Shown here piece by piece: positions 4,870 to 24,400 of a DNA stretch of 26,365 nucleotides. The position numbers and the translations under genes are program-made. The notes under the pieces were generated by a model, which was not told where the DNA came from, did no database searches, and saw nothing but the letters and a program-made list of their open reading frames with translations. The DNA lies in the IMG/VR virus record IMGVR_UViG_3300043478_000013, positions 1 to 26,365 of that record; one strand, written 5' to 3'. How positions within the stretch are numbered: the stretch's first letter is position 1; each line of letters starts with the position of its first letter. The stretch is from a virus (lineage: Duplodnaviria > Caudoviricetes).

Positions 4870-5505
4870 CTACAGCCCCCGCCCGGTCCCGTTGATCCGC
4901 GAGGCGCGGAACCGATTAAGCCGCGATGTCGACCATGACCCCAACGGCGGGAAGCGCGCCGGCAGGTCCATGGCGTTCTTGTTCTCCGCGGCGTGTGCGA
5001 GCGAGCGTTCGAGCTTGATCAGCATCGTCTGCTTGGTGGTGTCGCCGCCGAGGCGCCCGCAGAGCGAGGCAGCTATATTGGCCTCGACATAGCGCTGGAA
5101 GGCCATCGACCACTTGCCGAGGTCCATGCCGTATTGCGGGTCGGACGATACGAACCGGATGTAGATCGGGGTGAGGTTGGCGTAGAAGTAGCCCTGCTCG
5201 AAGGCGTAATCGACCAGGGGGTTGCGCTCCAGAATGTCGGAATAAACCCCGGTCGTGCGCATCCAGTCGTTAGGTATCTTGAAGGCGTAGGAGTAGCCGA
5301 AGGTCGGCTCGACCGAGGGGTCGTCGTTGGCCTCGATGGCGCGGATGGCAAAATTCCACATGCCGCCTTCCAGGCACGCGCGCGTAGCCGAATTCCATAT
5401 CTGATCGAGCGCCCGCTTTTGGTCGGTGTTTTCCGACAGCGATTGCAATTCGCGCTGCCCGAGCAGCCGCAGTGCGCCGTTGTAGACTTCGAGCTTGTCG
5501 GCCAT
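4870..5505 (-). CDS. Tail adaptor / tail tubular protein A (T7 gp11-like), copy 1
   Basis: 211 aa; YNGALRLLG, WNFA and YAFKIPNDW motifs. Confidence 0.85.
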   Translation of the reverse strand: MADKLEVYNGALRLLGQRELQSLSENTDQKRALDQIWNSATRACLEGGMWNFAIRAIEANDDPSVEPTFGYSYAFKIPNDWMRTTGVYSDILERNPLVDYAFEQGYFYANLTPIYIRFVSSDPQYGMDLGKWSMAFQRYVEANIAASLCGRLGGDTTKQTMLIKLERSLAHAAENKNAMDLPARFPPLGSWSTSRLNRFRASRINGTGRGL

Positions 5506-5508
5506 GGG

Positions 5509-6207
5509 CTATTTGCTCCCGCGGTTGCCCTGATCGCCTTGCGGCTGCGCTGGGGCCGAGAATTTCAGTTGTGCGTGGAACGGCAGGATGTCGATCGGGT
5601 GCAGCGCGTGGCCCTCGACCGGCATCGCGCGCGCCTGCGCATCGAACGGGCGCAGCCCCGGCGCCATCGCCACGGAGTCGATGGCAAGCGCCGCCATCAG
5701 GTAGCGGTCGACGCGGGCTTCGAGGAGTTCACTGAGCGGGCCGGCGCCGCTGATGCGTATCGCCGCCCACGCGGCCAGCAGATGCACGAAATAGGTGGTG
5801 AAGGTCTGCGACCATTTGGCGAGATTGGCGCCGCCATCCGTTACGTCATTCGACGAGTAGCGGACGTAGAGCGTGGCGGCGTTCGAGAACCACTGGCCTT
5901 GCTGGTCGATAAAGTCGTTGACCAGCGGCAGATTGTAGGCCGCCGCCTCGGAGGCGAGGAACAGGTGCACGAGGTCGGTGGGCTTGGTGAAGACGTTGGC
6001 GTAGTTCATGTCGCCGCCGCCCGCCGGCGTCAGCGCGGCGTTGCGCATGGCGAAATTCCACATCCCTTGTTCAAGGGCGAACTGCAGGCAGTCGGGATAC
6101 AGGTCGTCGAGCACACGGCGCGGCTCGACTTCTTCCACGAGCGACGCGAGCGTGCGCTCTCCCATGGCGATCAGCGCTCGGTTATAGATGCCGAGTTTCG
6201 TCGCCAT
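5509..6207 (-). CDS. Tail adaptor / tail tubular protein A, copy 2 (paralogue)
   Basis: 232 aa; YNRALIAMG, GMWNFA, FTKPTDL and LAKWS align with copy 1. Confidence 0.8.
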   Translation of the reverse strand: MATKLGIYNRALIAMGERTLASLVEEVEPRRVLDDLYPDCLQFALEQGMWNFAMRNAALTPAGGGDMNYANVFTKPTDLVHLFLASEAAAYNLPLVNDFIDQQGQWFSNAATLYVRYSSNDVTDGGANLAKWSQTFTTYFVHLLAAWAAIRISGAGPLSELLEARVDRYLMAALAIDSVAMAPGLRPFDAQARAMPVEGHALHPIDILPFHAQLKFSAPAQPQGDQGNRGSK

Positions 6208-6210
6208 GGA

Positions 6211-6399
6211 TCACCCTGCGATGGTTTTGCGCTTCGCCGCCGACGCCCGCGCCCAAAGCTTGCAGTGCCCGCGCGGGGAGATATCCCCCTGCACCGAGAT
6301 GCAGCGCCTCGCCAGCCGATACATCGAGCAATCCTGGCACTGCTTTGTCGCCGAATAATCGACGTAGTTCGCCTCGGCCTTGCTGATCTTCTCGGTCAC
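6211..6399 (-). CDS. HiPIP-like [4Fe-4S] protein lacking a signal peptide
   Basis: 62 aa; Y12, C21-x2-C24-x8-C33-x12-C46, ISPRGHCKLW (HiPIPs have GWC). Resembles small HiPIPs such as PioC and Iro, from memory. Confidence 0.75.
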   Translation of the reverse strand: MTEKISKAEANYVDYSATKQCQDCSMYRLARRCISVQGDISPRGHCKLWARASAAKRKTIAG

Positions 6400-6402
6400 G
6401 GC

Positions 6403-6597
6403 TCACCCCACGATGGTCTTGTGCTTTGGCCTCGCCGGCGCCGTTTCCCGTGCCGTCGCCAAGGCGACCGCCACCGCCTGCTTGTCCGCGGTTTCTTTGT
6501 CATGATCGCGCTTTGTGCGCGCGTAGGTTTGGCCCTTATGGAATTCGCGGATATTTGCCGAAATTACCTTGCGGGATTTTCCCTTTTTCATTGGCAT
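6403..6597 (-). CDS. Small basic phage protein (MPxKKGKS...ISxNI...QAVAxAL family, DUF6496-like)
   Basis: Real gene is the C-terminal 64 aa of track ORF 6403..7170, starting at ATG 6597 just after the upstream stop. Confidence 0.7.
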   Translation of the reverse strand: MPMKKGKSRKVISANIREFHKGQTYARTKRDHDKETADKQAVAVALATARETAPARPKHKTIVG

Positions 6598-6599
6598 GG

Positions 6600-7073
6600 C
6601 TAGGCCGCCTTCGTCTTGGTGGAGCGCTTGACGTAGTCGGCGAGCGCCGCGTCGGCACGCTCCTTGGTGGGGAACTTCGCGACTTCCTTGTTGTCGTAAC
6701 CGATCAGCCGCCAGCCCGACTTGGTGAAGTGCAGGCCCGGCAACTCGGTCGGCGGGTCGGAGTATTTCTTGCGCTCGGCCTCGACGGCCGCGGAGGCTTC
6801 GGTCGCGGCGGCCCGCTCGGGGAAGTGCTTCACCCACAGTTCGTCCATCACGACAAAGCCCGCCTCCACGTCGAACACGATCAACTCGCCGACGTAGGAG
6901 AAATCCTCCGCGCGCGCGAAGACGGTGTCGCCGCGCTTCATGGTGCCGGCGTGGTGCTGCCAGGCCTTCGGGTCGAGCAGGTCTTTCCAGGCCACATGCG
7001 GCTGCAGCGTGATGTGCCAGGCGACGGACTCGAACTCGCGCCGCTTGAGGATGGTCGGAGAAATAACGGTCAC
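6600..7073 (-). CDS. Hypothetical phage protein, 157 aa
   Basis: Start moved to GTG 7073, with AGGAG at 7085-7081; globular composition; in the operon. Confidence 0.7.
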   Translation of the reverse strand: MTVISPTILKRREFESVAWHITLQPHVAWKDLLDPKAWQHHAGTMKRGDTVFARAEDFSYVGELIVFDVEAGFVVMDELWVKHFPERAAATEASAAVEAERKKYSDPPTELPGLHFTKSGWRLIGYDNKEVAKFPTKERADAALADYVKRSTKTKAA

Positions 7074-7478: not shown

Positions 7479-8318
7479 TTACGAGCCGGCGACGATGGCC
7501 GAGCCGTCATGCTTCATCATGACGACGCCGGTGTTCTGCAGGAGCACGCCGCCGTGGTACACGGTCGCCCGCGTCCAGGACGTGTCCTCTTTCTCGTCAT
7601 AACCGAGCATGATGTTCTCATCGCCGACGTTGACGGCGTAGCCGATGGCGTCGCGGTGGAACAGGTAGCACTTCTCGGTATTGGTCCCGATGCCGCTGAT
7701 GCGGGTCGAGAGAATCCAGTTGATGCCGCTCCACCGCCACACCTTGCGGGTGATGCCGGCGAGAGGTTTGATGTCGACGTAATCGCCGCTGGAGTACGCC
7801 GTGACCTGTTCGAGGTAGGCCAGGAAAGCGGGGCTAACCACCGCGAATAGGTTCTCCATGTCCGACACATCCACATCGGCCTTGCCGAGGACGCCTTTAG
7901 CGAGGGAAACCATGGCCAGCGTGGCGGTGGCCGTGGTGCCGGTGGTCTGCGTCGAGGTATCTAGGATGTCGATGATGGTCTGGTCGATGTCGCGGTTGAT
8001 GGTCCCCATCGAGTTGCGGCGCATGATGGCGTTCTGATCGCCCTGCGACGCAAAGATGTTGAACCCCGTCATCTCGAACGGCGCGTGCTTTTCGAGCAGC
8101 GTCGCGGTCTTCTGGGTATTCGAGTTCTGCCCGTAGGGGATTTTTCCGTTTGATCCGCGGGTGACCGCAGTAGCGCCGCCGGAGCCGGCGACCAGGAACA
8201 CCGCAGTGTTGCCTTTGATGACCTGCTCGCGGGTGGCGCACTGGCGCAGCATGGACACGGTCTGCTCGAACGTGCCGATGAACTCTTTCCTATAATGGGT
8301 GACAGCAGCAGCTACCAT
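7479..8318 (-). CDS. Major capsid protein
   Basis: 279 aa; GAGGAG RBS; follows the scaffold; INRDIDQTII, WSGINWI and FHRDAIGYA motifs of podovirus capsids. Confidence 0.85.
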   Translation of the reverse strand: MVAAAVTHYRKEFIGTFEQTVSMLRQCATREQVIKGNTAVFLVAGSGGATAVTRGSNGKIPYGQNSNTQKTATLLEKHAPFEMTGFNIFASQGDQNAIMRRNSMGTINRDIDQTIIDILDTSTQTTGTTATATLAMVSLAKGVLGKADVDVSDMENLFAVVSPAFLAYLEQVTAYSSGDYVDIKPLAGITRKVWRWSGINWILSTRISGIGTNTEKCYLFHRDAIGYAVNVGDENIMLGYDEKEDTSWTRATVYHGGVLLQNTGVVMMKHDGSAIVAGS

Positions 8319-9463: not shown

Positions 9464-9753
9464 GCTGCTTTGGTCCCCTTCTTGCGCAACGCCTCAAGGA
9501 TAGTCGGCGCGTTGTTGATCACGCTCACGAGGTTGAGCCCCACGCCGCGCATGCCCTGCGCGTAGAGGGTGTTGCTCTCGCTGTCGGCAAAGTAGGTCTG
9601 GTCGTAGATGCGGCAGAACTTTTCGAGGATCGCCCGCACCGCGCGCTGTTGCTGGTCGGCCGAGGCGACACCCTTGGCCACGGCCTCGATCGCGGACACG
9701 TCGATTGCATCGTAGTCGGGCGGGTGCCACGGCTGCGGCAGCGGCTTGGTCAC
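9460..9753 (-). CDS. Bbp19-like small head protein
   Basis: 97 aa between portal and scaffold; TLYAQGMRGVGL resembles the AFxEGxRxVGL family motif; 4-nt overlaps on both sides. Confidence 0.65.
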   Translation of the reverse strand: MTKPLPQPWHPPDYDAIDVSAIEAVAKGVASADQQQRAVRAILEKFCRIYDQTYFADSESNTLYAQGMRGVGLNLVSVINNAPTILEALRKKGTKAA

Positions 9754-11408
9754 CGATTCAACGCACTAACCATCGGCGCGGCCTTGTTGGCGATCTCCGC
9801 CGCCTGGCCGGCCTGCGCCATCTGCGCCTGCTGCGCCTGCACCTTGCGGGCGGCGGCGACCATCTGCTCGACCTGCTTGGGATCGCGCAGCCAGTCGGCC
9901 GGAATCTCGACCCCGCGAAGCGCATCGCGGCCGGCCTTTGCCACGTCGAGCTGGTGCACGAACGCGGGATCGAGTTGCATGGCGGCCTGCACGATCGGCC
10001 CGGCCTCCTGGAACGCCTGCGCCTTGGCGCGCTCCGCGGTCGCCTGCAACGGGCTCTCGAACTCGAAGTGAACGTCGGCGCCGCGCAGAATGTCGGGCAT
10101 GCCTTCCGGCGGGCCGAAGCCGTTGTTCTCCACCATCAGCGCAAAGGTCTCGTTGCACATTTCGCCGTTGTATTCGACCTCCATCGGCTCGAAGAGCGGC
10201 AACGCCGAGCGCACGTACTCCTCGATCCGTTTGCGGGTCTCGAAGGCCGTCATCTCGCGCCCGTCCTCGGGCAGCGGGAGGTTGATCTTGTTGAGGTAGA
10301 ACTGATGCTTCATCAGCTCTTGCACCTTCTCGAGCATCGCCATGCCGTGGTTGATGCCGCGCAGATCTTGGGTGACCGGGCGCAGCGCATCGCCGAGGCG
10401 CTCATCGTACTCGCGGTCGACCCAGGTAATGCCGCCGGCGTAAAGCTGCATGTCGGTGCGCACCGCTTCGAGCGTGGCCACCATCGGCGGGTTCGACGCC
10501 TTCTCCCCCACCTCGAGCAGCGAGAGCGTCATCTGCTGCATAAGGCGCGCATCCGGCAGCGCCAGCATGACCGCGGGAGAGACCGCGTATTGCTTGAACG
10601 CACCCAAGTTCCAGCGCGGGATGACGTAGCCGAGGCGAGTTTGCGGCAATTCCTCCAGGATGACATCGTTCGTGACATCGAGCAGGAACGAATAGAACGG
10701 GAAGCGCTTGCGGTTGATCTTCTTGCCGTCCTCGCCCTTGCCATCGTACTGCTCGGACGGGATCACGCAGTGCCGCACCTCGAATTCCTTGTAGGGCTCG
10801 TCGCGAACGACCTGGTTCTTGACGACATCGGCCACCGTCTTGGGAAAGAACTTCACCAGATCGCGGGCGCAGACCTTCTCCTTGCGGTGCACGGCGTCGA
10901 TCGTGCCGGTGCGGTCCTCGCACCACGCCACGTCGCGCAAGTGGTAGGTCTGGAACAGGAGTCCGTCGCGGTCAGGGTTGAGCGAGATCTGAATCGCGGT
11001 TTGCCCGAACGCGCAGAAATCCCGGTCCCCCACCTTGGTCGAGCGCAGGAATTGGGCGCGACGGGCATACATCGATTTGCGCATGCGCTCGCTGGCCCAT
11101 TCGAGCCATTGCCGGGCCTGCGTGTCCTCGTCGATCTGCGCATTCGTGGCGGTGAGCTTGGCCCACAGCTTGCTCCGCGGGCGCAACATCGCGGCCAACT
11201 GATCGGACAGTTCCCGGAGCTGCAGCGGCGGGTAGCCGGTCATCAGGTACGACGCGAAGTCGTCGCCGAGCGTGCGCGTGGTCGTGAAGTCGGCCCGCTC
11301 GGGATAGAAATTCTCGGCAATGTCCTGCCACAGCGACATGAGCGAGCCGCGCGAGGAGAACAGCCGGTCGCCGATCTCGACGATCTCGCGGCAGCGGGAC
11401 TTGCTCAT
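9750..11408 (-). CDS. Portal (head-to-tail connector, T7 gp8 / BPP-1-like)
   Basis: 552 aa; WQDIAENFYP, YVIPRW...YAVSP, MTAFE and FESPL motifs. Confidence 0.9.
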   Translation of the reverse strand: MSKSRCREIVEIGDRLFSSRGSLMSLWQDIAENFYPERADFTTTRTLGDDFASYLMTGYPPLQLRELSDQLAAMLRPRSKLWAKLTATNAQIDEDTQARQWLEWASERMRKSMYARRAQFLRSTKVGDRDFCAFGQTAIQISLNPDRDGLLFQTYHLRDVAWCEDRTGTIDAVHRKEKVCARDLVKFFPKTVADVVKNQVVRDEPYKEFEVRHCVIPSEQYDGKGEDGKKINRKRFPFYSFLLDVTNDVILEELPQTRLGYVIPRWNLGAFKQYAVSPAVMLALPDARLMQQMTLSLLEVGEKASNPPMVATLEAVRTDMQLYAGGITWVDREYDERLGDALRPVTQDLRGINHGMAMLEKVQELMKHQFYLNKINLPLPEDGREMTAFETRKRIEEYVRSALPLFEPMEVEYNGEMCNETFALMVENNGFGPPEGMPDILRGADVHFEFESPLQATAERAKAQAFQEAGPIVQAAMQLDPAFVHQLDVAKAGRDALRGVEIPADWLRDPKQVEQMVAAARKVQAQQAQMAQAGQAAEIANKAAPMVSALNR

Positions 11409-11669: not shown

Positions 11670-11888
11670 TCAGCCTCCCAGCGTGCGGCGGGTGTAGGGC
11701 GCATCGCTGTCGCCCTGCGAGAGGATGGTCGAGCGCCGACCCGAGCGGCCGATGATCGCACGCATGCGCTCCTCCTCCGCCTGACGCACCTCCGGTGCCT
11801 GCAGGTCCGGCATCACCGGCGTCGGCTTCGGCGGGGGTGGCGGAGGGGGAGGCTGGGGGGCGTCGCCGCCGCCAAACAAACCGGACAT
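11670..11888 (-). CDS. Small putative virion protein, 72 aa (T7 gp6.7/7.3-like position)
   Basis: ATG 11888 with GGAG RBS; MSGLFGG, poly-Pro, GRRSTILS and C-terminal RRTLGG, typical of pre-portal proteins. Confidence 0.7.
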   Translation of the reverse strand: MSGLFGGGDAPQPPPPPPPPKPTPVMPDLQAPEVRQAEEERMRAIIGRSGRRSTILSQGDSDAPYTRRTLGG

Positions 11889-11902
11889 GCTAATCTCCAT
11901 CC

Positions 11903-12163
11903 ATGGACAGACGCTCATTCCTTTGCGGCGCCGTCGGCCTAGTGGCCGCGCCCGCAATAGTGCGGTTTGCTTCGCTGATGCCGGGCGGGCTGGTCATGGC
12001 GATGCCGAAAATGGTCATTCTATCGCGGGAGGAGTTCGAAAGAGTGGGCTGGAAGTTTATCGAGGCCGGCTATCCCGTCATCATTAGCATGCCCATACCC
12101 ATCAGCGGCGGCGTGCCGCCTGATGCCCCAGCACCGCCTTGGGCAACCCGCGCGGGCTCATGA
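11903..12163 (+). CDS. Small protein with a twin-arginine (Tat-like) signal
   Basis: MDRRSFLCGAVGLVAAPAIVRFASLMP: RRxFL consensus followed by a hydrophobic stretch; 3' end overlaps terL antisense. Confidence 0.55.
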   Translation: MDRRSFLCGAVGLVAAPAIVRFASLMPGGLVMAMPKMVILSREEFERVGWKFIEAGYPVIISMPIPISGGVPPDAPAPPWATRAGS

Positions 12164-13688
12164 GTTGCGAGCGCCGCGCCGCGTCGCCTTCGGATAGGGC
12201 ATAGGCAACCGCATCACCTTTGCCGGGCGAGCGGCCGAGCCGCTTGCGCAGCTCCGCCTTGTCTTCGATCAGGATGCCGCGCGCGGTGGCGTCATAGGTC
12301 GGCGCGGCAAGGTCGGCCCGCAGTTCCGGGTCGGGCGGCAGCGCAATGACCGAGCCGCCAACCTGGTCGGGGTTCAAGGCCTCGCGTAGTCGCCACCAGC
12401 ATTCCGCGCGTTTGTTGGCAAAGTGCAGCGCACCATCGACGGTGCGGGCGCTCGAGGCGCCGGCGCCGTTGAACGGGCGCACCGGAACGCCGTTGTCCTT
12501 GAGCCGCATGATGGTGACGCCGCCGAAACCGTGGCCGGCGCCGCCGCCGGCGTCGACCACCACGGGAGCGTTGTCCCGACGGTAAGAGATGATCTTGCCC
12601 GCCGCCGCCGAGCCGTCTGCGGTCTGCTCGCCCTTCTCGGTGATCAGCGGCGCGTACCATCCGCCGTGCCGCCGCGCGATCACGGCGTCGTCGCGCCCGC
12701 CGCCGGCCGGGTCGAAGGCGATTGCGGTCATCGCGAATTCTTTATGGCCGTCCGCCGTCCAGCGGTTTTGCGCCTGCACGATCCAGTCAGTCGGGATCAC
12801 CTGGAATTCGGCGTCGCGCTGGCCGACATCGAAGCGGCCCTCGCGCATCATGGTGCGCAGCGGCTCGGGCATGCCCTCGAGCGTTGCGGCGTAATTCTCG
12901 GACATCAAATACGGATTGTGCTCGAGCCGCGCCGAGATGAATGTTCGCGACCGCGCCACGTATTCTTGCCCGTCGATGACGTGCGGGCCGCGGCCCTTCA
13001 CTTCGGTGGTCACGCCGTCGACAACGACATACCATCGCAATTCGCCAGGCACGGCCGGGGCGGGATGCGTCGGGTCGAGCCACGCGCCCCAATACTTTAC
13101 GACCCAAAAGCCTTCGGCTTTCGTCGGTGGATTGCCGGTTGCCACGACGCGGCAGCGCTGGCCCTCGCTGGCCGAGCGATTCCAGCCGATCAGGAAGCGA
13201 TACTGGCTTTCGGTGAAAAGCGTGATCTCGTCGAAGCCGACAAAGTCATGGGCGCGGCCCTGATATTTCTCCTTGTCGTTCTCGTAGGGGACCGAGCCGA
13301 ATTCGAGCTCGCGTCCTTGCGCGTACCGCCAGATTTTCTGCTGCGCGTTATAGCCGGCGTGAGTGCGCAGGATTTTTGCGACCTCGTCCACGAGTCCCTT
13401 GATCTGGGGAAACTCGCGGCGAAAGATGATGGCGTTGCGATGCTCCTGAACGGCAAGGCCGCATAGCAGCGCCGACTTCCCGCCACCGGCGGCGCCGCCA
13501 TAGAACAGTTCGTCGGCCTCGCAAAAGTAAGCGTCTTTCTGCGGGCCGGAAATTGGTTCAAAAGGCAGGCCATTGGTCAGGCGCTTCTCCTTCATGGCCT
13601 CTTTGACGGGCGCCGCGATCTTGTGTTTGACGATGGCGAGCAAGGCGTCATATGCCATCGCCGTCTCGGATGCGCGAGGGTCGGTCAT
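12102..13688 (-). CDS. terL: Terminase large subunit
   Basis: Walker A YGGAAGGGKS, Walker B FVGFDE, ATGNP coupling motif, nuclease FDPAGGGRD...KGDA. Start set at ATG 13688 (ATGA overlap). Confidence 0.95.
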   Translation of the reverse strand: MTDPRASETAMAYDALLAIVKHKIAAPVKEAMKEKRLTNGLPFEPISGPQKDAYFCEADELFYGGAAGGGKSALLCGLAVQEHRNAIIFRREFPQIKGLVDEVAKILRTHAGYNAQQKIWRYAQGRELEFGSVPYENDKEKYQGRAHDFVGFDEITLFTESQYRFLIGWNRSASEGQRCRVVATGNPPTKAEGFWVVKYWGAWLDPTHPAPAVPGELRWYVVVDGVTTEVKGRGPHVIDGQEYVARSRTFISARLEHNPYLMSENYAATLEGMPEPLRTMMREGRFDVGQRDAEFQVIPTDWIVQAQNRWTADGHKEFAMTAIAFDPAGGGRDDAVIARRHGGWYAPLITEKGEQTADGSAAAGKIISYRRDNAPVVVDAGGGAGHGFGGVTIMRLKDNGVPVRPFNGAGASSARTVDGALHFANKRAECWWRLREALNPDQVGGSVIALPPDPELRADLAAPTYDATARGILIEDKAELRKRLGRSPGKGDAVAYALSEGDAARRSQLMSPRGLPKAVLGHQAARRR

Positions 13689-14503
13689 GCGCCGCACCAC
13701 TGTCGGAAATTAGCGATCAGTGCTGCGCGCTGCGGCGCCGTCGGCACTGCGTTGCACGTCGCCATCTCAAAGATCTTGCCGTCGAAGGCGCCAGTGCCGC
13801 TGGCCAGGCCGCCCATGGAGATGAGGCCGGCGCCGTTGGAGGTGTTGCCGGAGGCGAGGGTGAACTCCGCAGCATTGTTGATTGCGCCCGCCACGTTGCC
13901 GCCGCTGTGACGCCATTCGAGGACGTAAGCGGTGCCGGCGACGATCGCGGCGGCGCCCGAGTCGGCATAATCGAAAGTTCCATCAAAGTTGAACGCATAG
14001 AGGTTGCCGCCGAGCCGGCCCGCCATGCCCCAGTCGTCGAGCGTATCGATGAAGATGCGGTGGTTGCGGTCCTTGGTCGAGCCGTCGTTGAGCGTCAGCG
14101 TGTCGAAGATGCCGCTGATGATGACGTACAGCGTCGAGGTCGAGCCGAGCGCCGTCATGGTGGCGGCGGACTGGCCGTTCAAGCAATCATCGGTCCCGTC
14201 GAAGTCGCCACAAGGGCGTGAGCTGGGGCCAGCCGTGGTCAGCGTCGGCTGGCGCGTTCCGGTCTGGGTCAGGTTGCGGAGCGTCGTCCCTTGCTGGTTA
14301 TAGACGGTGGTGTTGCCGCCCACCGCGTCCGCCAGCGTGCCGCCGTAGGCCGACAGCAAGCGCCGCCCGAACGACCACGCGCCGGTCACACCCGTGATGC
14401 CGTCGAGCGGGAACGACAGCGCCAGGTCGCGATTACGGTGATGCGAGCGGCCATTCCCCGCACCGCGGCTCCGGTTTTTGCGGCGGTAATAGAGCTGCAG
14501 CAT
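13685..14503 (-). CDS. Putative fibre/receptor-binding protein, LamG/ConA-like
   Basis: 272 aa; GAWSFGRRLLSAYGG, DFDGTDDCL and FDGKIFEM motifs; basic N-terminus. Confidence 0.6.
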   Translation of the reverse strand: MLQLYYRRKNRSRGAGNGRSHHRNRDLALSFPLDGITGVTGAWSFGRRLLSAYGGTLADAVGGNTTVYNQQGTTLRNLTQTGTRQPTLTTAGPSSRPCGDFDGTDDCLNGQSAATMTALGSTSTLYVIISGIFDTLTLNDGSTKDRNHRIFIDTLDDWGMAGRLGGNLYAFNFDGTFDYADSGAAAIVAGTAYVLEWRHSGGNVAGAINNAAEFTLASGNTSNGAGLISMGGLASGTGAFDGKIFEMATCNAVPTAPQRAALIANFRQWCGA

Positions 14504-14504
14504 T

Positions 14505-15443
14505 TTAGGTGAAATTCCCGATGCCGATGGCGGTCACATTACTGCCCGTGGTTAATTTCCAGGCGCCTCCGGTCGAGACTATGCCGAGCGGCACGTAGAT
14601 CGGAGCGAGGTCGGCGAGCGCAGTCGTGCCGCCGCCGGCAAAGATGGAGATCGCCGACCCGGCCCCGTCCTTGATCGAGACGGCCCCCGCGGCCGAGGTG
14701 CCAGGCACGATCAGCACCGCCTCGAGGTAATCGCCGGCGGCGCCGGTGGCGCCGAGCGATTGGTCGGTCTGCGAGGCCGCCACGGTCTCATATTCGCCGG
14801 CAATGAAGTTGGCCGAGTCGGTGTGCAGGGTGTTGAGCTGCGAGGTCACGAGCCGGAGCTTGGCCGATAGCGAGCCGGTCGATCCTGCGGTTGCTGCTGC
14901 GTCGGCGGTGGCGCCGAGCGTGGCGACGGCCGGGTCGTCCGAGGCGAGCGTGACCCGCGGGACGGTGGCAGCGACCGCGCCGGCGCCGGCCGCAACGCCG
15001 GCCTGACCGACAATGATGTTGACCTTGGCGCGGTCGGTTTCATCCCAGTCGCCGAGGACCGACAGCGAGGCTTCGGCCGCCGCGTCCTGCACGGCGAAGG
15101 TGCCGGCGTTGGTGACGGCGTGCGAGCCGACGGTGACCGTGCCGGACACTGCCACCGTGCCGTCGACCGTGAGCGATCCGGCGTTGTCGTCAACGTGCAC
15201 GACGTTGGTGATCGTGGTGACGGTGCCGACGGTCACCGGGATCGCGCTCTGATCGGAGGCGATCACCACCGGCAGCGATGCCGCCATGGTGTCCTGGCCG
15301 ACCACGACGGCCTCGATCTCGCTGCCCGAGCTGTCGCTGTTGACGATGCGCTGCAGCTCCTTGGTCTCGGTGTCCTCGCTGATCGAGTAGGTCGCGACGT
15401 TGCGGCCCGATCCGGGGGTGACTTTGACATCAGATGTTGTCAT
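14505..15443 (-). CDS. Putative virion fibre protein with beta-rich repeats
   Basis: 312 aa; Ala/Gly/Thr/Val-rich; SLPVVIASDQ and RVTLASDD repeats; compact C-terminal beta domain. Confidence 0.6.
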   Translation of the reverse strand: MTTSDVKVTPGSGRNVATYSISEDTETKELQRIVNSDSSGSEIEAVVVGQDTMAASLPVVIASDQSAIPVTVGTVTTITNVVHVDDNAGSLTVDGTVAVSGTVTVGSHAVTNAGTFAVQDAAAEASLSVLGDWDETDRAKVNIIVGQAGVAAGAGAVAATVPRVTLASDDPAVATLGATADAAATAGSTGSLSAKLRLVTSQLNTLHTDSANFIAGEYETVAASQTDQSLGATGAAGDYLEAVLIVPGTSAAGAVSIKDGAGSAISIFAGGGTTALADLAPIYVPLGIVSTGGAWKLTTGSNVTAIGIGNFT

Positions 15444-15479
15444 ACATATATTCCCTGGTCAGGACTTGGAGAGTTAGGC

Positions 15480-16007
15480 ATGACGCCCGACTTGAGCTTG
15501 CTCGGTACCCGGCTCGACGAGTTGCTGCGGATCGCGAACATGAAAGCACTGACTATCTGGGCACCATGGGCGCAATTGATCATGATTGGGGCGAAGCCAT
15601 TCGAGTTTCGCCGCTGGGACTACCGCGAGCGCGAGCGCGCACTGGAAGGCCAGCGCATCGTGATCCATGCTGGCGCGCGCCCGGTACGGGCCCTCGAGGT
15701 CGAGGACATCATCGCGGGGCTCAATGATCGCATAAGCTCGCTCATCCCGGACAAGGCGAGGCCGCTCCTTGAGCGGCTGCGGTCGGCCAAGTGCCAGGGC
15801 GTGTGCGAGTTGTCGGCTGGGCTTGGGACCGTAGTGCTCGGCAAGCCGCGGCACGTATCGAGCCTCTCGCCGGCCGACAGCGACCGCATCGACCATCACA
15901 TGTGGGCGTGGCCGATGCTCGACATCCAGCCATGGCCGGAACCTGTTCCGATGCGGGGGGCGCAAGGCTTCTGGCAATGGCCGCAGAAGGACGAGGAGGC
16001 GGCGTGA
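15480..16007 (+). CDS. ASCH-domain protein
   Basis: MKALTIWAPWAQLIMIGAKPFEFRRW...IVIHAG...PVPMRGAQGFW; GGAGAG RBS before ATG 15480 (alternative start 15540). Confidence 0.85.
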   Translation: MTPDLSLLGTRLDELLRIANMKALTIWAPWAQLIMIGAKPFEFRRWDYRERERALEGQRIVIHAGARPVRALEVEDIIAGLNDRISSLIPDKARPLLERLRSAKCQGVCELSAGLGTVVLGKPRHVSSLSPADSDRIDHHMWAWPMLDIQPWPEPVPMRGAQGFWQWPQKDEEAA

Positions 16008-16036
16008 AGATGTGGGCAGATAGAAGGACAGGTACG

Positions 16037-16432
16037 ATGCGTGGTGTGGTGGTTGCGGTGGCGGCGTGCGTGCTGGCGACAGAGGCGGGCGCGGCGACGT
16101 GGCATTGTCATTTCCGGCCGTCGCCAGAGTGCGTGGGGGTCGATAGTCAGGCGTGCTTTCACCAGACGTTTCGACTCGTTGACGGGCGGGTGTGGGTCGA
16201 GCCTGGACGCGGCGCCGATCCCGATTGGCGGACGCCGCTGCGGAGGATCGGTCGCAATCACTGGTCGTTGACTATCAACGGAGACAAGTCAGATATGCGC
16301 TTGAGGCGGTTATCGAACCGCAGGGCTCTATTGACCTCAAACGAAGACACCGCCGATTGCATTTGGCTGCGACGAGAGACTGAGGACTGGAGCCCTTATT
16401 TCAATCGCGATACGGGAAAATGGGATTACTAA
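16037..16432 (+). CDS. Secreted/periplasmic protein, 131 aa
   Basis: AAGGA/AGGT upstream; signal-like MRGVVVAVAACVLATEAGA-A; four Cys in the mature part; stop overlaps the convergent gene's stop. Confidence 0.6.
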   Translation: MRGVVVAVAACVLATEAGAATWHCHFRPSPECVGVDSQACFHQTFRLVDGRVWVEPGRGADPDWRTPLRRIGRNHWSLTINGDKSDMRLRRLSNRRALLTSNEDTADCIWLRRETEDWSPYFNRDTGKWDY

Positions 16433-17976
16433 GCCACGTCCGTGATGCCGTCCGGATTCACCGCCGTGAAGTCGCTGGCGAGCCCATCGTTGTTGGCGGT
16501 GGTGCCGGTGATGATGTCGGCCTTGTGGCCCCAAAACAGAATTTCCGCCACACCGAACTTGCTCTGTCCCACCGACGGTATGCGCATCGTGCCGTTCTTG
16601 TAGAAGTACTCGATGTTGCTTTTCGAGCCGGACGTTAGCTTGGTCTGCGCCTGCGCCCGTTTAGCGGCGTAAAAGTTTTGCAGGTTCGTCCACCACTGCG
16701 AGATCGTGCTCGCCAGGGTTATCCTGGTACCCCACTGGGCACTCATCCATGCCTGATTTAGCAGATTGTGCGGCGTGGGCGGCGCAAACGTGCTGATGAC
16801 TCTGTTGGGTGTGTCCCGCACTGCATTGAGGACGATGTTGAAACCGCCGGGGCCTTGGTTGTGCGAGAGGTAGTGATAGAGCCCGGTCGGGTCAGCCACT
16901 CCTCGGCTCACCACCGGGCCGTGCCAAGGCACGATTCCGCTTTGTGTCCTGGTGGTCGTGTAGAACCACAGATAGGCGTCCAATTGATCGGTTGTCTTAT
17001 ATAGGTCCGGCGTCCGCGTCAGCCCCAATCCAGTGAAAGCCGCCTGGATTTCGGCAGCGTTGAACTGGAACAGACCCTTGTACTGCGTGCTGTTGGTGCG
17101 GTTGGATAATGGGTTGTATGCGCTTTCGATATTGGCAAACGTGAGCATGATGAGCGGGTCGAGGCCGTAGCCGTTGGCGCCGTCGACGAGGTCGCGTATC
17201 CAGTCGTCTGAATTGGCGACCTGAGCGCCCGATGCGGCGCCCTCCGGGTCGATGTACTGCGCGCACCATACTTGAATGTTGGAGAGGTTGACCGCTCCAT
17301 CCCCGTTCGGGTTTGGTATTGAGATTGTCGGCCCACTGATGGCGTTGACGATGGCCGCCGACCACGGGGTGATGGTGGCCTCGAGGGGCGTCCCAACGCC
17401 GCTACCGGCGCGATAGCTGCCCGCGGTATAGTTCACCGGGTAAAACTCGTTGCTTGTTAGGTCGAGACAGTCAACCCCGTTGATCCATAGTTTAGCGATT
17501 GGCGCCTCAAACGACGGCGGTACGCTGGGAGAATAGCTGACATAGGTGGATAGGTCGATTGAGATAAACAAATGAAACTTGTCGCCCAGAGCAACCGTCT
17601 TCGAATCGAATCCGAATACGCCCTTTAGGTGCTCGGTGCCGTTTGCTTCGGTGGTAACCGTCGCGCCAGTGGCGGTGCTCTCGACATTCACGGTGATCGA
17701 GCCCGACCCGCCCCCGCTCATATTAAGGATGATGGTGGTGTTGCCTCCAGGGAAGCCGGGGCTGCCCTCGTCGCCAATGGTGATTAACGGATACTGGCCT
17801 GCCGCCGCGGCCGGCTGCACTCCCATCGAAAACGTGAGCTTGTTGGTGTCGGCTATCGTGGTGGCGGCCTGGCGAAGCGTCGAGCCCACCGCATACCGCA
17901 GCCACGCCGGCTCCAATATCTCCTCCGTGACCACCCCGCCCGGCCGTTTGTTGCTCGCGCGCAGCTTCTTCGCCAT
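16429..17976 (-). CDS. Fibre-like (LamG-type) protein containing a lytic transglycosylase domain
   Basis: 515 aa; GLDP...IES, GLFQF and YLSHNQGPGG are the SLT/lysozyme-like motifs; flanked by beta-rich sequence. Confidence 0.75.
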   Translation of the reverse strand: MAKKLRASNKRPGGVVTEEILEPAWLRYAVGSTLRQAATTIADTNKLTFSMGVQPAAAAGQYPLITIGDEGSPGFPGGNTTIILNMSGGGSGSITVNVESTATGATVTTEANGTEHLKGVFGFDSKTVALGDKFHLFISIDLSTYVSYSPSVPPSFEAPIAKLWINGVDCLDLTSNEFYPVNYTAGSYRAGSGVGTPLEATITPWSAAIVNAISGPTISIPNPNGDGAVNLSNIQVWCAQYIDPEGAASGAQVANSDDWIRDLVDGANGYGLDPLIMLTFANIESAYNPLSNRTNSTQYKGLFQFNAAEIQAAFTGLGLTRTPDLYKTTDQLDAYLWFYTTTRTQSGIVPWHGPVVSRGVADPTGLYHYLSHNQGPGGFNIVLNAVRDTPNRVISTFAPPTPHNLLNQAWMSAQWGTRITLASTISQWWTNLQNFYAAKRAQAQTKLTSGSKSNIEYFYKNGTMRIPSVGQSKFGVAEILFWGHKADIITGTTANNDGLASDFTAVNPDGITDVA

Positions 17977-17980
17977 CGCG

Positions 17981-19237
17981 TCAGTCCTCGATCCACGCCT
18001 GCACGGTCCCGGCGTGCGTCGTGATGATGGTGAGGTAGCTCCATTCCATCGTCGCGAACACGACGCCGCGGGCGGGCTCGAAGACCGGCGGGTCGGTGTA
18101 GTTGAGCGTTATGCCATCCGCGTCGTAGGACACGAACGTCGCTACGATGTTGGCGACGCCGTCCTGCCCCAGCAGCGTGATGGTGTCCTCGTTGGCGGTC
18201 GAGTGGTGCACGGTCGGATGGCCGGAACCGACCGAGTTGCCGTCCGAGGTCGAGCCGACCGCAAAGCCGCCCGACTTGCTCGAGGTGACGGCGTGGTTGC
18301 CGAAGCGCCAGTCGAACGCCTGCGACAGCTTTTGTTGCTGCGTCAGAAGAAGCAGGAACTGCTGCGGCGTCCCGCCGAAGCCGGTATAGGACTGGTGCCC
18401 GGCGTCCTCGGTGAGGCCGAATTTGCCGGTCGAGAGCACGCCAGCCCCTTCGTATTTGAGCGCGAGGTAGCCGTACTTGTGGGTCGGCTCGCTCGATGAC
18501 GAGTGGAGCGTGAAGCCGTTGGCGACCTGCGTGACGATGGCGCCGTACTGCGTGGCGCCGAAGCGATAGGCGCCCCAGGTCGGCCCGAAGGCTGGCCCCG
18601 ACGCGGTGGTGACGTTGTTTCGGGTGCCGATTCCGGCGTCGTGGACGTGCTGCACGGCGTTGCTCAAGCCGCCGCCGAAGGTGGTCGCCCCGATCGTGAC
18701 CTGGCCGAAGCTCGTGGCGACCGTGCCGGCGATGGCATCGGAGGCGCCGGCGAGGAGCACGCAATCGGGGGTGAAGCCGAGCGCCGTGGTCACACCGGCG
18801 AAGCTGATGGCCGAGGTGCCGCAGGCCACCGTCCAGTCGGAGCCGGAGAAGAACAGCGCCGTGACAAGCCAGCCGTCGGCGGCGGCGACGGTCCAGTTGA
18901 CGGTGACGCCGTTGGCGATGAACGCGACGAAGGCGGCGGCGGAGTGGATCGCCGAGGTGGCCTTGAGCGCCACGATGCACGCGGCCGAGGTGCCGATCTT
19001 AGTGGCGACGCCGACCGAGGTGGCGCCGTTCTGCGCCCACATCGCGAACGCGCACTGGTTGACGCCGTCGGTCATGCCGAACGAGGCGCCGGCGTCGGCA
19101 GTCACGGTGCCGTTGGCGGAGGCGCGTGAGTATAAGAACAAACACGCCTTCGGCGTTTCGCCGCCGAGGTCGGTGGTCGTGATGTCCTGGTTGCCGGTGC
19201 TCGTCTTGGCGGCGGCAACGGCAACGGCGACGGTCAT
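17981..19237 (-). CDS. Putative virion fibre/structural protein
   Basis: 418 aa; Ala/Gly/Thr-rich; three internal repeats (LGGETPKACLF, LGFTPDCVLL, FGGTPQQFLL; GVTVNWT, GFTLH, GITLNYT). Confidence 0.6.
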   Translation of the reverse strand: MTVAVAVAAAKTSTGNQDITTTDLGGETPKACLFLYSRASANGTVTADAGASFGMTDGVNQCAFAMWAQNGATSVGVATKIGTSAACIVALKATSAIHSAAAFVAFIANGVTVNWTVAAADGWLVTALFFSGSDWTVACGTSAISFAGVTTALGFTPDCVLLAGASDAIAGTVATSFGQVTIGATTFGGGLSNAVQHVHDAGIGTRNNVTTASGPAFGPTWGAYRFGATQYGAIVTQVANGFTLHSSSSEPTHKYGYLALKYEGAGVLSTGKFGLTEDAGHQSYTGFGGTPQQFLLLLTQQQKLSQAFDWRFGNHAVTSSKSGGFAVGSTSDGNSVGSGHPTVHHSTANEDTITLLGQDGVANIVATFVSYDADGITLNYTDPPVFEPARGVVFATMEWSYLTIITTHAGTVQAWIED

Positions 19238-19279
19238 GCTATAACCTCGCCGCGGCCGTGCGCCTAACCTACTAGGATT

Positions 19280-19444
19280 TTATGGATAGGTCAAACTGAT
19301 CAAAAGGCCGATGACCTCGCCGGAATTGCTGCCGCTGCTGCCGCCGCCGCCCTCGCTGGGGCTCTTGCTCACCAGATCGGACCCGGCGGCGTCGAACGGC
19401 GAGTATGTGAACTTGGAACGCACGGCGGCGAGGAATCGCTGCAT
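19280..19444 (-). CDS. Small protein, 54 aa, with Gly/Ser linker and C-terminal GEVIGLLISLTYP
   Basis: ATG 19444 after AAGGG; the C-terminus resembles GxPxGLLLxLT endings of phage fibre-associated proteins. Confidence 0.5.
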   Translation of the reverse strand: MQRFLAAVRSKFTYSPFDAAGSDLVSKSPSEGGGGSSGSNSGEVIGLLISLTYP

Positions 19445-19454
19445 GGATGCACCC

Positions 19455-19787
19455 TTACGCGAAGAACTGCATGGTGACGGTGGTAGCGACCGCCGCAATC
19501 AGCGAGATATACGCCTGATCGGACGGCAGTTGCCGCATGGCCGGGTTGAGCTCCGCGGCCGAGCCGTCGACGATATCGCCCGCCGGCACGAACGCGGCCA
19601 CACCCGCCGGATCGATGCGGGCGTAGAAGTCGCCGTTGGCGGAGAACAGCACGTACTTGGCCGTGGCCGGCGCCTGGAAGGTTTCGGCAGCGCCCGCGCC
19701 GAGGATGCGCGCATCGATCCAGTTGGATTGCCGCAGCGCTTCCGCGTTGCCGTCATAGATGCTGAGGCGGGAGACGACCTGTACCAT
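19455..19787 (-). CDS. Small beta-rich phage structural protein, 110 aa
   Basis: Start likely ATG 19787 (MVQVV; alternative GTG 19901); VLFSANGDFYA and DGSAAELNP motifs. Confidence 0.6.
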   Translation of the reverse strand: MVQVVSRLSIYDGNAEALRQSNWIDARILGAGAAETFQAPATAKYVLFSANGDFYARIDPAGVAAFVPAGDIVDGSAAELNPAMRQLPSDQAYISLIAAVATTVTMQFFA

Positions 19788-20016
19788 GGGGGCGCTCTTC
19801 GGTTGCTTGGAGGATCGGGTCTTTGGCGGGCGCGGCACCTTTTCCCACCCGGCCGGCAAGGCGCCGAAACCGTGCGGGTCAGCGACGCGGCGGCAATCCA
19901 CTTGGATTATCCTGCTTTCCTGCCGGCCGACCTGGTTATGGTGCCGCCGGCGAGAACCGCCGGCAGTTCCGACAGCTTCACGACAAGCGGATCGACCGTG
20001 CTCTGTTCATCTTTCG

Positions 20017-20310
20017 TTAGATCAGCTTCTGAACCGCGTTTTCGACCGCGCCCTGCAGTTCCGCGTCGGTGACCGCGATACCACTCGCTTGAACACTGGC
20101 ATCCCAGACTACGGTCGGAATGACCTGGGCCGTGGCGCCTTCAGGGTTAACTAGAGTGGTCATGGACCATTTGTACCGTGTTGGATGTGCCGGCACGTTT
20201 GGCGCCTCGTCCGCGATGTAACTCGCAAATTTTGCGCAGCTAACCGTCACCCGACCGCGGAACGCCTGATCCTTCATCAGCTCAAACGTCTCTTCATAGG
20301 TCAGTGCCAT
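20017..20310 (-). CDS. Putative tail-fibre-associated (chaperone-like) protein
   Basis: 97 aa directly after the fibre gene, with a GAGGG RBS. Confidence 0.55.
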   Translation of the reverse strand: MALTYEETFELMKDQAFRGRVTVSCAKFASYIADEAPNVPAHPTRYKWSMTTLVNPEGATAQVIPTVVWDASVQASGIAVTDAELQGAVENAVQKLI

Positions 20311-20313
20311 GTG

Positions 20314-21417
20314 TCACCCTCGTTGTTTCGCCTCAAGGTCACTGATGCGTTGCACGGCGCCGGCAAAGGCCGACGCCAGCAGCTCGACGGCGAGCCATAG
20401 GCGATTATACATCTCGCCGAGCGATTGCTCGCCATGTTTCCAATCTTTGGTCGTTGGCATGCCTGGCAACGCCTCATCGCGCAGCATGCGCTCGACATAT
20501 TGTTGTGGATTGCGAGGGTCGAAGTCCTTCAGCATCTCAACAAAACGGTGCGCCAGCTTGTGCTTGCCGGTGGGTGCGAATGCGTCCCATTGCTTCAGGT
20601 CGACCGTACTGCGCGCCGCGTACTGAGCCCCGAAGCAGGTCAACAACGTGCCGTCATCGTACACGGCTTGCGCATTAATGGCGCCTGCTCCCGCGACGTC
20701 GCCACCTATGGGAGCGCCCCACACAAACGCGCCATTCGCCGCAGCATATCCTCGTGGCGTACCGGCGATTACAAACTCAATCGGCCCACCGCCAGTGTCG
20801 GTCATGAGGTTGAGGGCATTGGCTCCGCCGTATGCAGCGTAATTCGACGAGCCTAAGAATATATATGCCAACGTAGCGGCGTTGTTCTTGAACTGAATAG
20901 CTGTAGCTGCGTTGCTGGCGGAGTTGATGTTTTCCAAATTGAACCCAAAGAAGAGCCCTGCGACGCTCGCCGTTGTCGATATCTGGCCATTGGCGGTGAT
21001 GCTGCCACTGGCGATATTCCCGCCTACTCCCAGCCCGCCCGCCACCGTCAGCGCGCCGGTCGAGGGGGAGGTCGAGGCGGTAAAGCTCCCAACCGAGACT
21101 TCGCCGGTCGGCGTCAAGCGCAGGTTGACCTGACTATTGACACCGAGGTCGGCCGGGCCGGCGCTGTTCTGCGTTACAAAAAACGCTTTTTCCGGCGTGT
21201 TGCCGAACAGCAGATTGTTGATGAGGACCCCGTAAGAACTGTCGTCGGGAACCCCCAGCACCAAATTGGCCGTGGCCAGCGCGGGGGCGGGGATATTGAT
21301 ACCGAGGGCGCCGGTCATGGTGTCGCCGGCCTTGGCGACCTTGGTATCGATCGCAGCCAAGCCGGCATTGAGCTCCGCGCGAACACTTGCGCCGCTTTCA
21401 CCGTTGTCGATTGTCAT
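20314..21417 (-). CDS. Tail fibre with a C-terminal intramolecular-chaperone-like domain
   Basis: VAKAGDTMTGAL and TGALTVAGGLGVGG fibre motifs; C-terminal LPGMP...SLGEM...coiled coil (RISDLEAK). Confidence 0.75.
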   Translation of the reverse strand: MTIDNGESGASVRAELNAGLAAIDTKVAKAGDTMTGALGINIPAPALATANLVLGVPDDSSYGVLINNLLFGNTPEKAFFVTQNSAGPADLGVNSQVNLRLTPTGEVSVGSFTASTSPSTGALTVAGGLGVGGNIASGSITANGQISTTASVAGLFFGFNLENINSASNAATAIQFKNNAATLAYIFLGSSNYAAYGGANALNLMTDTGGGPIEFVIAGTPRGYAAANGAFVWGAPIGGDVAGAGAINAQAVYDDGTLLTCFGAQYAARSTVDLKQWDAFAPTGKHKLAHRFVEMLKDFDPRNPQQYVERMLRDEALPGMPTTKDWKHGEQSLGEMYNRLWLAVELLASAFAGAVQRISDLEAKQRG

Positions 21418-21419
21418 GA

Positions 21420-24400
21420 TCAATCAATCCATACCGCCGTGTCGTCCCATGACCCGCTATCGTCCCAGCTGCCGTCCGTGAGTATCCAATGGAGAGTGAC
21501 CGTGATGCCGTAGTAGTCGGCCATGTTCTCGCGGATCGATGTGCGGTCATCGGATGAAACGGCGGCGTTCCATGCCACGCACTCAAGTTGAGTGACGCCG
21601 GCACCTGTCCCCGGATACTTGACCACCGCGGTAGGCGCCGCTTCCAGCGGTGCCTGTATCCCGCTTTGAAGGGTCGTTGTTAACGCAACGCCATCGACGG
21701 AGATGGTAGTGGCGCCGTCCGCTGCGACCACGCATTCAAAAACGTGCGCGCCCACATCGACGGTTTCAGTGGTGGCCCAAACCATTCCGCCGCCCGTGTC
21801 GAAATACAAATCCCCGGCCACATTCCAAAAGGAGCCAAAATTTATTTGAGATGAGGTCGCGTGAAGTAGCGCGTATCCGTTGGACGGGTCTGTCACTTTT
21901 GCAACAGCAATGATAGTCAACGCCCCGCCAGCAAAGTCAACATTTCCCGAAAGCTCACGACCATCAAAAGCAACAATGCCGGGTTGGGAGTTTTGAACGC
22001 TCGCCGCCCATGCTGGTTGGGCATCCGGATCGGCCTGCGTCGTGTCTATGTCATTGCCAGATTGGTCATTATCGGTAACAACAAGTCCGGCCGCCCCGTC
22101 CAGAAATGCAAGGATACTCGCCGCAGGCGCCGCGCCGGTCGTTGCGTCTGAGCTAAACTCCTGCGTGGTGTCCCCAGCATCCTCGCGGATTGTGTAAAGC
22201 GCCGAACCGCGCATGGCCGCGCTTAGTGCCCGCTGCCCGTAAGCGAGGATTGCTCCAGAGACAATGTCGAGCGGTCCCTCGTAGGCGCCGCCGCCCGTCA
22301 CCGTGACCGTAATCGTCTGCGTATCGCTGCCCCCACCGCGCCCGGTGGCTGCGACCTCCACCTCATATTCGCCCGCCTCCGCAGGGTCGATGAACCACAG
22401 GTCTCCGGTTTGGTCGAGGATTTCAAACAGCGCCGCGTCGGCACCGCCGGTGATGCTGTAGTTGATCGGCCCGCCACCATGGGCTTGCTCCGCAACAACA
22501 GTGGTGACCTCGATCTCCCCGCCCGCGACCGACACCGCCGCGGTCGCGCCGCCGCCGTCCGAGGTGATGGCGGGCGCCAGACACCTGATGCCAGGGAAGA
22601 AGACCGCGCCCATCAGGTGATCCCGAGCATCGAGGCCCTGATCCGTGATGACCTCAACAGTGATAGATGTGCTGCCGATGTCGCCAGGGACGGAGCTGAA
22701 CCTTGGATACATTTGGTCGTTGAGCAGCCACGTTCCAGCGCCAGGGTCGGTAATGCTATCTCCGGCTTGGGTGCCGTCATGCGTTGTCGGATAGAGGTTG
22801 CGAACCCCGGCCTGCTTCGGATCGATGGTTGGGGTCCAGATAACGGCACTTCCAGCTGAATTGATAACGAAGGGGCCGTCGAAGCCGAATGTCGGAGATG
22901 AACTCCCGGTATAGGGTGTCACCACCTCAATTCGGATGCTGACCAGATATCCCCAAACCGGGACGACCACAGCGGGCGAGCTGCCATTGTAGGTTCGCCG
23001 CGAATACGACCAGAGCGGCTTATTCTGTGCCCCAGCTTGGGATAGATCGACCGCGTCGGCACATCCCGTGTTCCCGGTTCCCGACAAAATTGGACAAGGA
23101 TGCACAACAAGCTTGAACGACGACGTGCCTGCAAAGAAAGGAAGAGTTGGCCACCCTCCCGGTAACGTCGTATGAACTCGCGTGAACCCGCTATCCTGCG
23201 TCACGCCAGTAACCTGAAATGGCGATCCCTCGAAAGTATATTGCCCTCTAAAGACTAGATTAGTGCCGGGGACAGCCCAGGCTAGCGGAACCCCATCGTC
23301 TTCGTAAGAAATCACTCCACCCGATATGGTGTATTTGCTATCCACACCAAGCGGACCCCCAGGCTCCACGACTGGATTGATCGCTATCTCCCCAATAATG
23401 CAGTCTGTTACGCTGATTTGATCGGTGCGCCCGTAGCCAGACACACCAATGGACAAGGAATCTGTTGTCCCACCGTCAATGGTTAACCGCCTAGGAGTAC
23501 CGTTGTACGCATCGACATGAGCATCCGTAACAAACATATTTGCAGGGCCCGTCATGGAAATGAATTGAAAGATGCGATAGTCACCTCTTGTAATGTTCAA
23601 AGTGGTGACGAGTTTATCGACTTCCTGGTTCGCGCTCGACTGATCAAAGTCAATCCAATTGATCTCATCGCACTGTGAAGGAATAAGGCCATTGCCACCT
23701 AGTGCGCCACCACCATTCCATGTGTATTTGCGGGCCTTACAATAGGTTTGAACATTGACCTGATCAATGGTCAGGCCATTAATTGTCAGATCCAAATCCC
23801 AAACGTAAGGCATTGCATATATTGTAGCAACGGGTTGACCTGTACTATAAGACGGCCACGTTGAAAGGTATTGGTTAGCAAGACCAGTTGAGAATGAAAT
23901 ATCCCCGGTCGAGGTATTTATCGCTGTTATCTTTCGATAATCGTGAAAGGCGGGATTCGGGGGAGATGAGCCCCCACCTTGCAAGTCAAACCCAGCAACA
24001 CAAATCCACTGATTAACGACAAAGCGTGTGTGTTCGCTTGGGGTCTTAAGCCGAACTGAAGTTGCCCCTATGCTGGCGGATTCAATGAGTGCCTGCTTAG
24101 TCGGGTCATCCTCGACAACGCCAATTCCCGCAACATTAAATCCAGCCGCAATGCCGCCATCCGTAGCCGTGAAGGTAACCCCAGTTGCATTGACGACAAC
24201 TGTCAAGCCACCCAGAAGTCCGTCAACCAAACGAAATCCACCTGGGCCGTCCATCACGTATGTATTAGCGCCACCCGCCCCGGCATTCGGAACCGTCAGC
24301 GTAACATCGTCGCCCGCATTCAGACCTTGCAAAAAATTATAAAAGTCGGCCCACTCACCCGAGCAATCTGTAACTCCGTCTAAGGGCGGGGAATAGTCAG

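Follow-up and report, generated by a model that had tools for sequence, protein, structure and literature searches.

What would a HiPIP-type iron-sulfur protein that lacks any export signal do in the head-tail module of a phage? HiPIPs are textbook periplasmic electron shuttles, with a [4Fe-4S]3+/2+ redox couple at +50 to +500 mV and a Cys pattern of C-x2-C-x(8-16)-C-x(10-13)-G-x-C. The window analysed here (a whole contig, 26,365 bases) carries a small gene of this type packed between the capsid cluster and the tail adaptors (Table 1).

The gene proposed in an earlier note corresponds to a minus-strand open reading frame with a GTG start, and the translation contains the expected C21-x2-C24-x8-C33-x12-C46, with Tyr12 upstream and G-D-I-S-P-R-G-H-C-K-L-W around the last Cys; translation of the + strand of 6211-6399 gave no four-Cys HiPIP-like protein. 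This ORF behaves as a true gene and its codon use fits the genome: GC3 is 0.85 and CAI 0.64, compared with 0.53-0.77 for ten neighbours and 0.17 and 0.34 for the remaining two minus-strand frames over the gene. A ribosome-binding-like stretch, GGGGTGAG, overlaps the stop of the upstream gene, and only 3 nt separate the HiPIP gene from its neighbour on each side. The proposed lack of a signal peptide also stands, as a leader is excluded by an in-frame stop two codons 5′ of the start and the maximum 15-residue hydropathy of the protein (0.06) leaves no room for one. The sequence of the gene is not an assembly error, and contigs from two other soil runs match parts of the region without differences (X2, 6123-6331 and 6359-6620; X3, 6254-6560), run X1, which may be the source, having been left out of this count. 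No read or contig joint bypassing the gene turned up, a result without weight at the thin cover available. Separately, a 1090-base X2 contig contains exact 18-mers of window positions 6226-6243 and 6385-6402, in order and ~900 bases apart, possibly by chance.

Table 1 Features of the window at and around the HiPIP gene.
Feature	Position	Strand	Remarks
Portal/head-tail connector	9750..11408	minus	Pfam/PHROGs context
Major capsid protein	7479..8318	minus	Pfam/PHROGs context
Small basic DUF6496-like protein	6403..6597	minus	phrog_2423; ends HKTIVG; upstream neighbour of HiPIP gene
Junction copy 1	6397..6437	minus	DUF6496-like 3′ end, stop in Shine-Dalgarno-like stretch, 3 nt, HiPIP GTG
Signal-less HiPIP-fold gene	6211..6399 (6399→6211)	minus	62 aa, GTG start, net charge +7
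HiPIP gene, Cys21/24/33/46	6339-6337, 6330-6328, 6303-6301, 6264-6262	minus	
HiPIP gene, aromatics			Y12, Y27, W49; H45 replaces Trp/Tyr
Junction copy 2	6205..6245	minus	HiPIP 3′ end (RKTIAG), stop, 3 nt, ATG of tubA1
tubA1, extra tail tubular/adaptor copy	5509..6207	minus	phrog_394 E=2e-24
tubA2, tail tubular/adaptor copy closest to relatives	4870..5505	minus	phrog_394 E=2e-33; 51% to L005

By sequence and predicted fold the protein is a HiPIP homologue. Both matches of a single-sequence PDB search are HiPIPs (PioC, E=1.9e-5; Rhodothermus HiPIP, 0.034), as are all 14 PDB matches of profile A3, made from 18 signal-less relatives (PioC, 8e-14). An AlphaFold2 model on a 108-row alignment had a pLDDT of 88.5 (an earlier model from an 18-row alignment, pLDDT 49.5, was set aside), and 16 of the 17 Foldseek rows listed are HiPIP entries, the top three with probability 1.0 and TM 0.64-0.66, although Foldseek against the PDB gave no match at E≤0.001. 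The HiPIP identity suggested by the earlier note is thus borne out by the best PDB match, by a profile that finds HiPIPs only and by the resemblance of the model to HiPIP structures, so that structure prediction agrees with it. The Pfam HIPIP model (PF01355) gave a divided answer: the window copy scores 13.4 bits against a gathering cut-off of 22, which is why automatic annotation misses it, but four phage-type relatives exceed the cut-off (23.6-25.7 bits). The score against the Iro model NF041615 is 21.7 bits (curated cut-off 100), and a PHROGs search found no family for the gene.

The four Cys follow the order C-x2-C-x(8-16)-C-x(10-13)-G-x-C, their spacing having been compared with that in Iro and PioC. 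PioC (Rhodopseudomonas palustris TIE-1, PDB 6xyv) and Iro (Acidithiobacillus; ligands Cys24/27/36/49, PMC10654088, in part) share the length class and Cys spacing of the window protein, as well as a Tyr before the first Cys and an aromatic residue after the second, and the model aligns with 6xyv at TM 0.66/0.75. Unlike PioC and Iro, the window protein has no Tat signal, has His before the last Cys and a basic C-terminal tail, scores under both curated cut-offs and is encoded in a phage structural operon. HiPIPs are exported by Tat (PMC7462912, in part), and the window copy, HiPIP-like by fold, therefore departs from the classical family in having no such export. It keeps Y12, Y27 and W49 of the aromatic shell, with His preceding Cys46; aromatic residues shield the cluster of HiPIPs (PMC10879576, in part), and retention of three of the four would favour a cubane over Zn. 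The protein likely binds a [4Fe-4S] cluster.

Relatives of the gene are numerous. A phmmer search against 50%-identity representatives gave 185 clusters, and the best 150 of these comprise 5 Tat, 81 stand-alone (85 aa or less), 49 longer, 14 tandem and one domain-less form, with two further entries assigned to the ‘cell-like’ class by eye; as the representatives carry no gene context, ‘signal-less’ does not establish that a sequence comes from a phage. Of the members with a record, 89-100% are viral in the three nearest ESM Atlas clusters, UniProt labels two viral entries by a HiPIP profile, and PF28414 is listed for three relatives. All four Cys are present in 165/167 domains, the G-x-I-x-P-x-G loop is conserved, and the 157 non-cell-like domains have an aromatic residue at the positions of Y12 (156), Y27 (154) and W49 (156). 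The residue before the last Cys is more relaxed (n=157: H 56, W 31, T 16, C 13, S 12, V 8, L 8), and His is found there in 1/10 cell-like domains as well. The change from Trp to His pointed out in the earlier note is therefore real but not special to the window copy; a private His45, a candidate while it was seen in 1/18 of a first set, is ruled out by the 56 of 157, and His for Trp at this position is, on the aligned domains, a subfamily trait.

Among other variants, Ser replaces the last Cys ligand in L173:48-296, L176:4713-4955 and P0178, and a serine-ligated HiPIP mutant (C77S) is present among the PDB matches. A 131-aa form from a 484-kb phage (LR756508; L016:2791-3186) scores above the Pfam HIPIP cut-off and has an N-terminal extension common to P0038-P0042. 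A word-index protein search with the single HiPIP query returned only the query itself, and viral scans with the HiPIP query, with P0092 and with tubA2 returned zero loci. The genome-contig scan, which used a strict pattern one residue longer than that of the viral scan, gave two weak loci, neither a domain match, a result that does not show absence of the family from cells. By the word-index and viral searches, the window copy has no close relatives.

These patterns bear on whether the four Cys form a degenerate Zn site, or the protein is carried along in the window phage without a function under selection. The relaxed residue before Cys46, loss of the last Cys in a few members and dispensability of the gene in relatives of the phage all point that way, but the aromatic shell and G-x-I-x-P-x-G loop are kept, codon use matches the genome and structure matches are HiPIP-only, and we consider this explanation improbable.

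By PHROGs and Pfam matches, the gene order begins with the terminase and continues with a portal-type connector, a scaffold-type gene, the capsid gene and three small genes up to the HiPIP gene; after it come two phrog_394 tail adaptors, a tail protein of phrog_376 and the internal virion proteins, apparently a podovirus-type layout. PHROGs families on both sides thus agree with the position given in the earlier note. Its placing of the gene in the head-tail module holds insofar as the gene is packed among structural genes, but not as a fixed part of the module: 12 of 14 capsid relatives span the capsid-to-adaptor slot and the HiPIP gene is present in 0/12, so that it is an accessory insertion in the window phage. 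The slot is variable, with other inserts in L005. The two adaptor copies are 35% identical over 156 aa, and the 12 relatives have one copy. Comparison with cultured phages found none close (best capsid matches 24-29%).

The 41-nt junctions at the two ends of the gene are identical at 30/41 positions (next best 41-mer in the window, 26), and junction copy 2 may be the scar of a cassette insertion. The DUF6496-like gene of L005 ends RKTIAEK and runs directly into the adaptor; the RKTIAG tail of the HiPIP protein resembles this end, and the relative P0092 ends RKRTISG. From these sequences we infer that the HiPIP gene arrived as a cassette inserted into the end of a DUF6496-like gene, taking the basic tail and the coupling signal. 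The idea of a general packaging signal of the form K/R-T-I/L-x-G at the C-terminus was not supported as tested and is a weak lead, the motif being found in five window ORFs (three credible genes) and two ORFs of L001-L014, of 488, against 12/4271 in other loci. Small pre-portal proteins (window 11670-11957; L002, L003, L007, L009, L010) often end TLGG, MLGG or GLGG, loosely like the HiPIP and DUF6496-like tails, and these ends are a possible candidate packaging signal.

Some other features of the window were noted. The DUF6496-like, HiPIP, tubA1, tubA2 and tail protein genes (6597 to 2179, minus strand) share one reading frame, the first four ending in TGA, TGA, TAG and TAG, followed by 3, 3, 3 and 0 bases; low-level read-through would join HiPIP to adaptor, as in portal fusions, although chance and coupling are likelier explanations. 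A block of long genes without Pfam families occupies 13685-24764 (minus strand), upstream of the head module and bounded by the terminase and the left end of the gene order; one of its genes has a weak virion-protein match and one a weak tail-fibre match. An 86-aa ORF with a twin-arginine-like N-terminus (11903-12163, minus strand) is found just after the terminase.

At the level of the family, ties to virion proteins recur. Portal, prohead-protease (DUF2213, S78, XkdF), MuF or major-head matches were identified in 12 of 37 longer relatives scanned for domains (the 12 omitted from the 49 are 89-116 aa), one of them weak (P0046, E=8e-7), and co-cargo in fusions includes Acb1, NUDIX, InPase, His-phosphatase, LMW phosphatase and ParB-like domains. 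In a search for longer forms 3/8 matches have protease or portal domains, and BFVD matches include XkdF, ClpP-class and prohead proteases. On viral contigs the HiPIP domain is N-terminal on podovirus-type portals (portal families are matched by L120, L128 and L159; L097 has no such match but is a near relative of L159, which follows a terminase) and on tail proteins (L105-L108, L119, L162-L171; three scanned). L144, which shares scaffold and capsid families with the window phage, has a His-phosphatase-HiPIP fusion gene between its scaffold and capsid genes.

In the cultured Synechococcus phage S-SRM01 (homologue QPX48026.1) and 75 similar viral loci the HiPIP domain lies behind a T4-like capsid-targeting leader. 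The leader pattern, written after viewing these loci, which are close kin, is present in 74/75 cyanophage-type HiPIP ORFs (the one exception is truncated where its contig ends) and in 1/1324 other distinct ORFs of the same loci. Six of the leaders have 9/10 identities to the T4 IPII/IPIII leader, and ten leader residues are enough for head loading in T4 (PMC9026906, in part). In a quick tree (56 columns, few supported forks) the 16 head-fusion rows require 12 changes and the 16 cell-like rows 4, suggesting repeated recruitment. In L149:4953-6479 a leader-bearing HiPIP gene is two genes away from an endonuclease V-like match; in T4, ipII adjoins denV.

Co-cargo and leaders would also fit a protein that is packaged and injected but in which the cluster is structural, a small stable fold that would bind a host defence protein and block it, comparable to the action of T4 IPI* on GmrSD. 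Acb1, NUDIX, InPase, His-phosphatase and ParB-like domains are largely of head-injected effector types (parts of PMC9503650 and PMC5512222), and the leader-bearing proteins of T4 are diverse counter-defence proteins (PMC3012670, in part). However, one core is retained in phages and contexts that differ widely, which would fit a general chemistry better than a single host target, and portal fusions would probably remain on the virion; we regard such a blocker as unlikely. Portal and protease fusions also do not fit a role like that of cellular HiPIPs, in which the phage would supply an electron carrier to rewire the respiration or photosynthesis of its host. Closeness to PioC and Iro and the frequency of the domain in cyanophage-type contigs speak for such a carrier, but access to the partners of HiPIPs is from the periplasm (PMC7462912, in part) and the window copy has no export signal, and its Iro score is 21.7 against a cut-off of 100, so that this role seems very improbable.

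The tie to structural modules proposed in the earlier note therefore holds for the family, through head and tail fusions and T4-like leaders, but not for every member. The best viral match, L177, has small genes around it and a ParB-like gene nearby, L180/L187 lie upstream of primase/helicase and L173 upstream of helicase, so that a survey of signal-less phage homologues finds many linked to heads and some stand-alone forms among replication or non-structural genes. Homologues not associated with structural modules, which the earlier note had held would speak against it, thus exist in part of the family. Such relatives, the variable slot with its other inserts in L005 and the junction repeat suggestive of insertion are what would be expected if the stand-alone protein stayed in the cytoplasm of the infected cell as a redox or Fe-S effector, e.g. 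in a peroxide or iron response, the slot being simply a landing site. Genes for T4 internal proteins also lie outside the head cluster, yet their products are packaged (PMC9026906, in part), and the repeated head fusions and leaders argue against a cytoplasmic site; we consider it rather unlikely.

The reading preferred here, to which we assign a probability of about 0.35, is that the window phage has an accessory, cluster-bearing HiPIP that is packed in the head with the DNA and acts as a one-electron sink, limiting oxidative damage to the genome. Its starting point is the HiPIP sequence and predicted fold without a signal peptide. Host cytoplasmic Fe-S machinery would very probably load the cubane, as for HiPIPs before export, and in the reducing cytoplasm presumably in the reduced state. 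For the window copy, translational coupling to late structural genes and co-packaging of a basic (+7) protein with DNA would follow, at what we judge to be even odds. The protein is unfused and coupled to structural genes, and neither a known packaging tag nor a T4-type capsid-targeting leader is present in it. In the last and weakest step the reduced, DNA-bound cluster would pass one electron along the DNA to guanine radicals, whether in the free virion or shortly after injection. Binding to DNA shifts [4Fe-4S] clusters to about +90 mV, and guanine radicals can then oxidise them through the DNA (PMC8499023, in part). A phage genome presumably tolerates few lesions, and a basic HiPIP lying against it could quench a small number of oxidative holes. 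The protectant model needs no fixed redox partner, and the relaxed residue before the last Cys therefore fits it. Tail-protein fusions, which would sit outside the head, and the Ser-for-Cys relatives (L173, L176, P0178) count against it. Net charge has a median of +5 in stand-alone relatives (n=93) and +0.5 in domains of head fusions; as the latter are near neutral, DNA binding is not family-wide. The wider proposition, that HiPIP was taken up by tailed phages of many lineages as a mobile redox buffer that travels in the virion and quenches oxidative holes in the packed genome, is doubtful; loading routes would then be portal, prohead protease, MuF or T4-type leader and, in the window phage, possibly a basic tail derived from the neighbouring gene.

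Among known systems, T4 IPI-IPIII are, like the window HiPIP, small basic accessory proteins and have a leader nearly identical to that of the cyanophage-type relatives, whereas the window copy lacks a capsid-targeting leader and its phage is podovirus-type. We know of no T4 internal protein that is an Fe-S protein. MuF-, portal- and prohead-protease-fused effectors (Iyer et al. 2017, PMC5512222; 2022, PMC9503650) have architectures that HiPIP relatives share, beside NUDIX, 2H/Acb1 and InPase, but those effectors are nucleotide-processing enzymes and the window HiPIP stands alone. Virions with a four-Cys [4Fe-4S] cluster have a precedent in the tail-tip domains of lambda gpL and RcGTA gp13 (PMC10721106, in part), which differ from the window HiPIP in Cys spacing (173/182/205/212), in belonging to a core tail-tip protein and in lying on the outer surface; gpL/gp13 domains were not among the PDB matches of the profile or Foldseek searches.

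A literature search covering titles and the starts of abstracts, and few subscription papers, returned nothing on phage HiPIPs. The main texts of PMC9503650, PMC5512222 and PMC7824862 do not contain the word ‘HiPIP’, and those of the first two also lack ‘iron’, although supplements of the three papers could carry the domain under another name. HiPIP relatives form a large, apparently undescribed family with repeated ties to phage heads. A cluster held inside virions would mean that redox chemistry travels in the phage capsid, with consequences for the survival of virions in oxic soils and sunlit water, for the part played by Fe-S clusters in virions (gpL) and for the question whether genomes in nature are protected by DNA-mediated charge transport. 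The tagged copy in cultured Synechococcus phage S-SRM01 makes the idea directly testable, and, should the redox-buffer reading be true, phage heads would have in HiPIP their first protective cargo that is redox-active.
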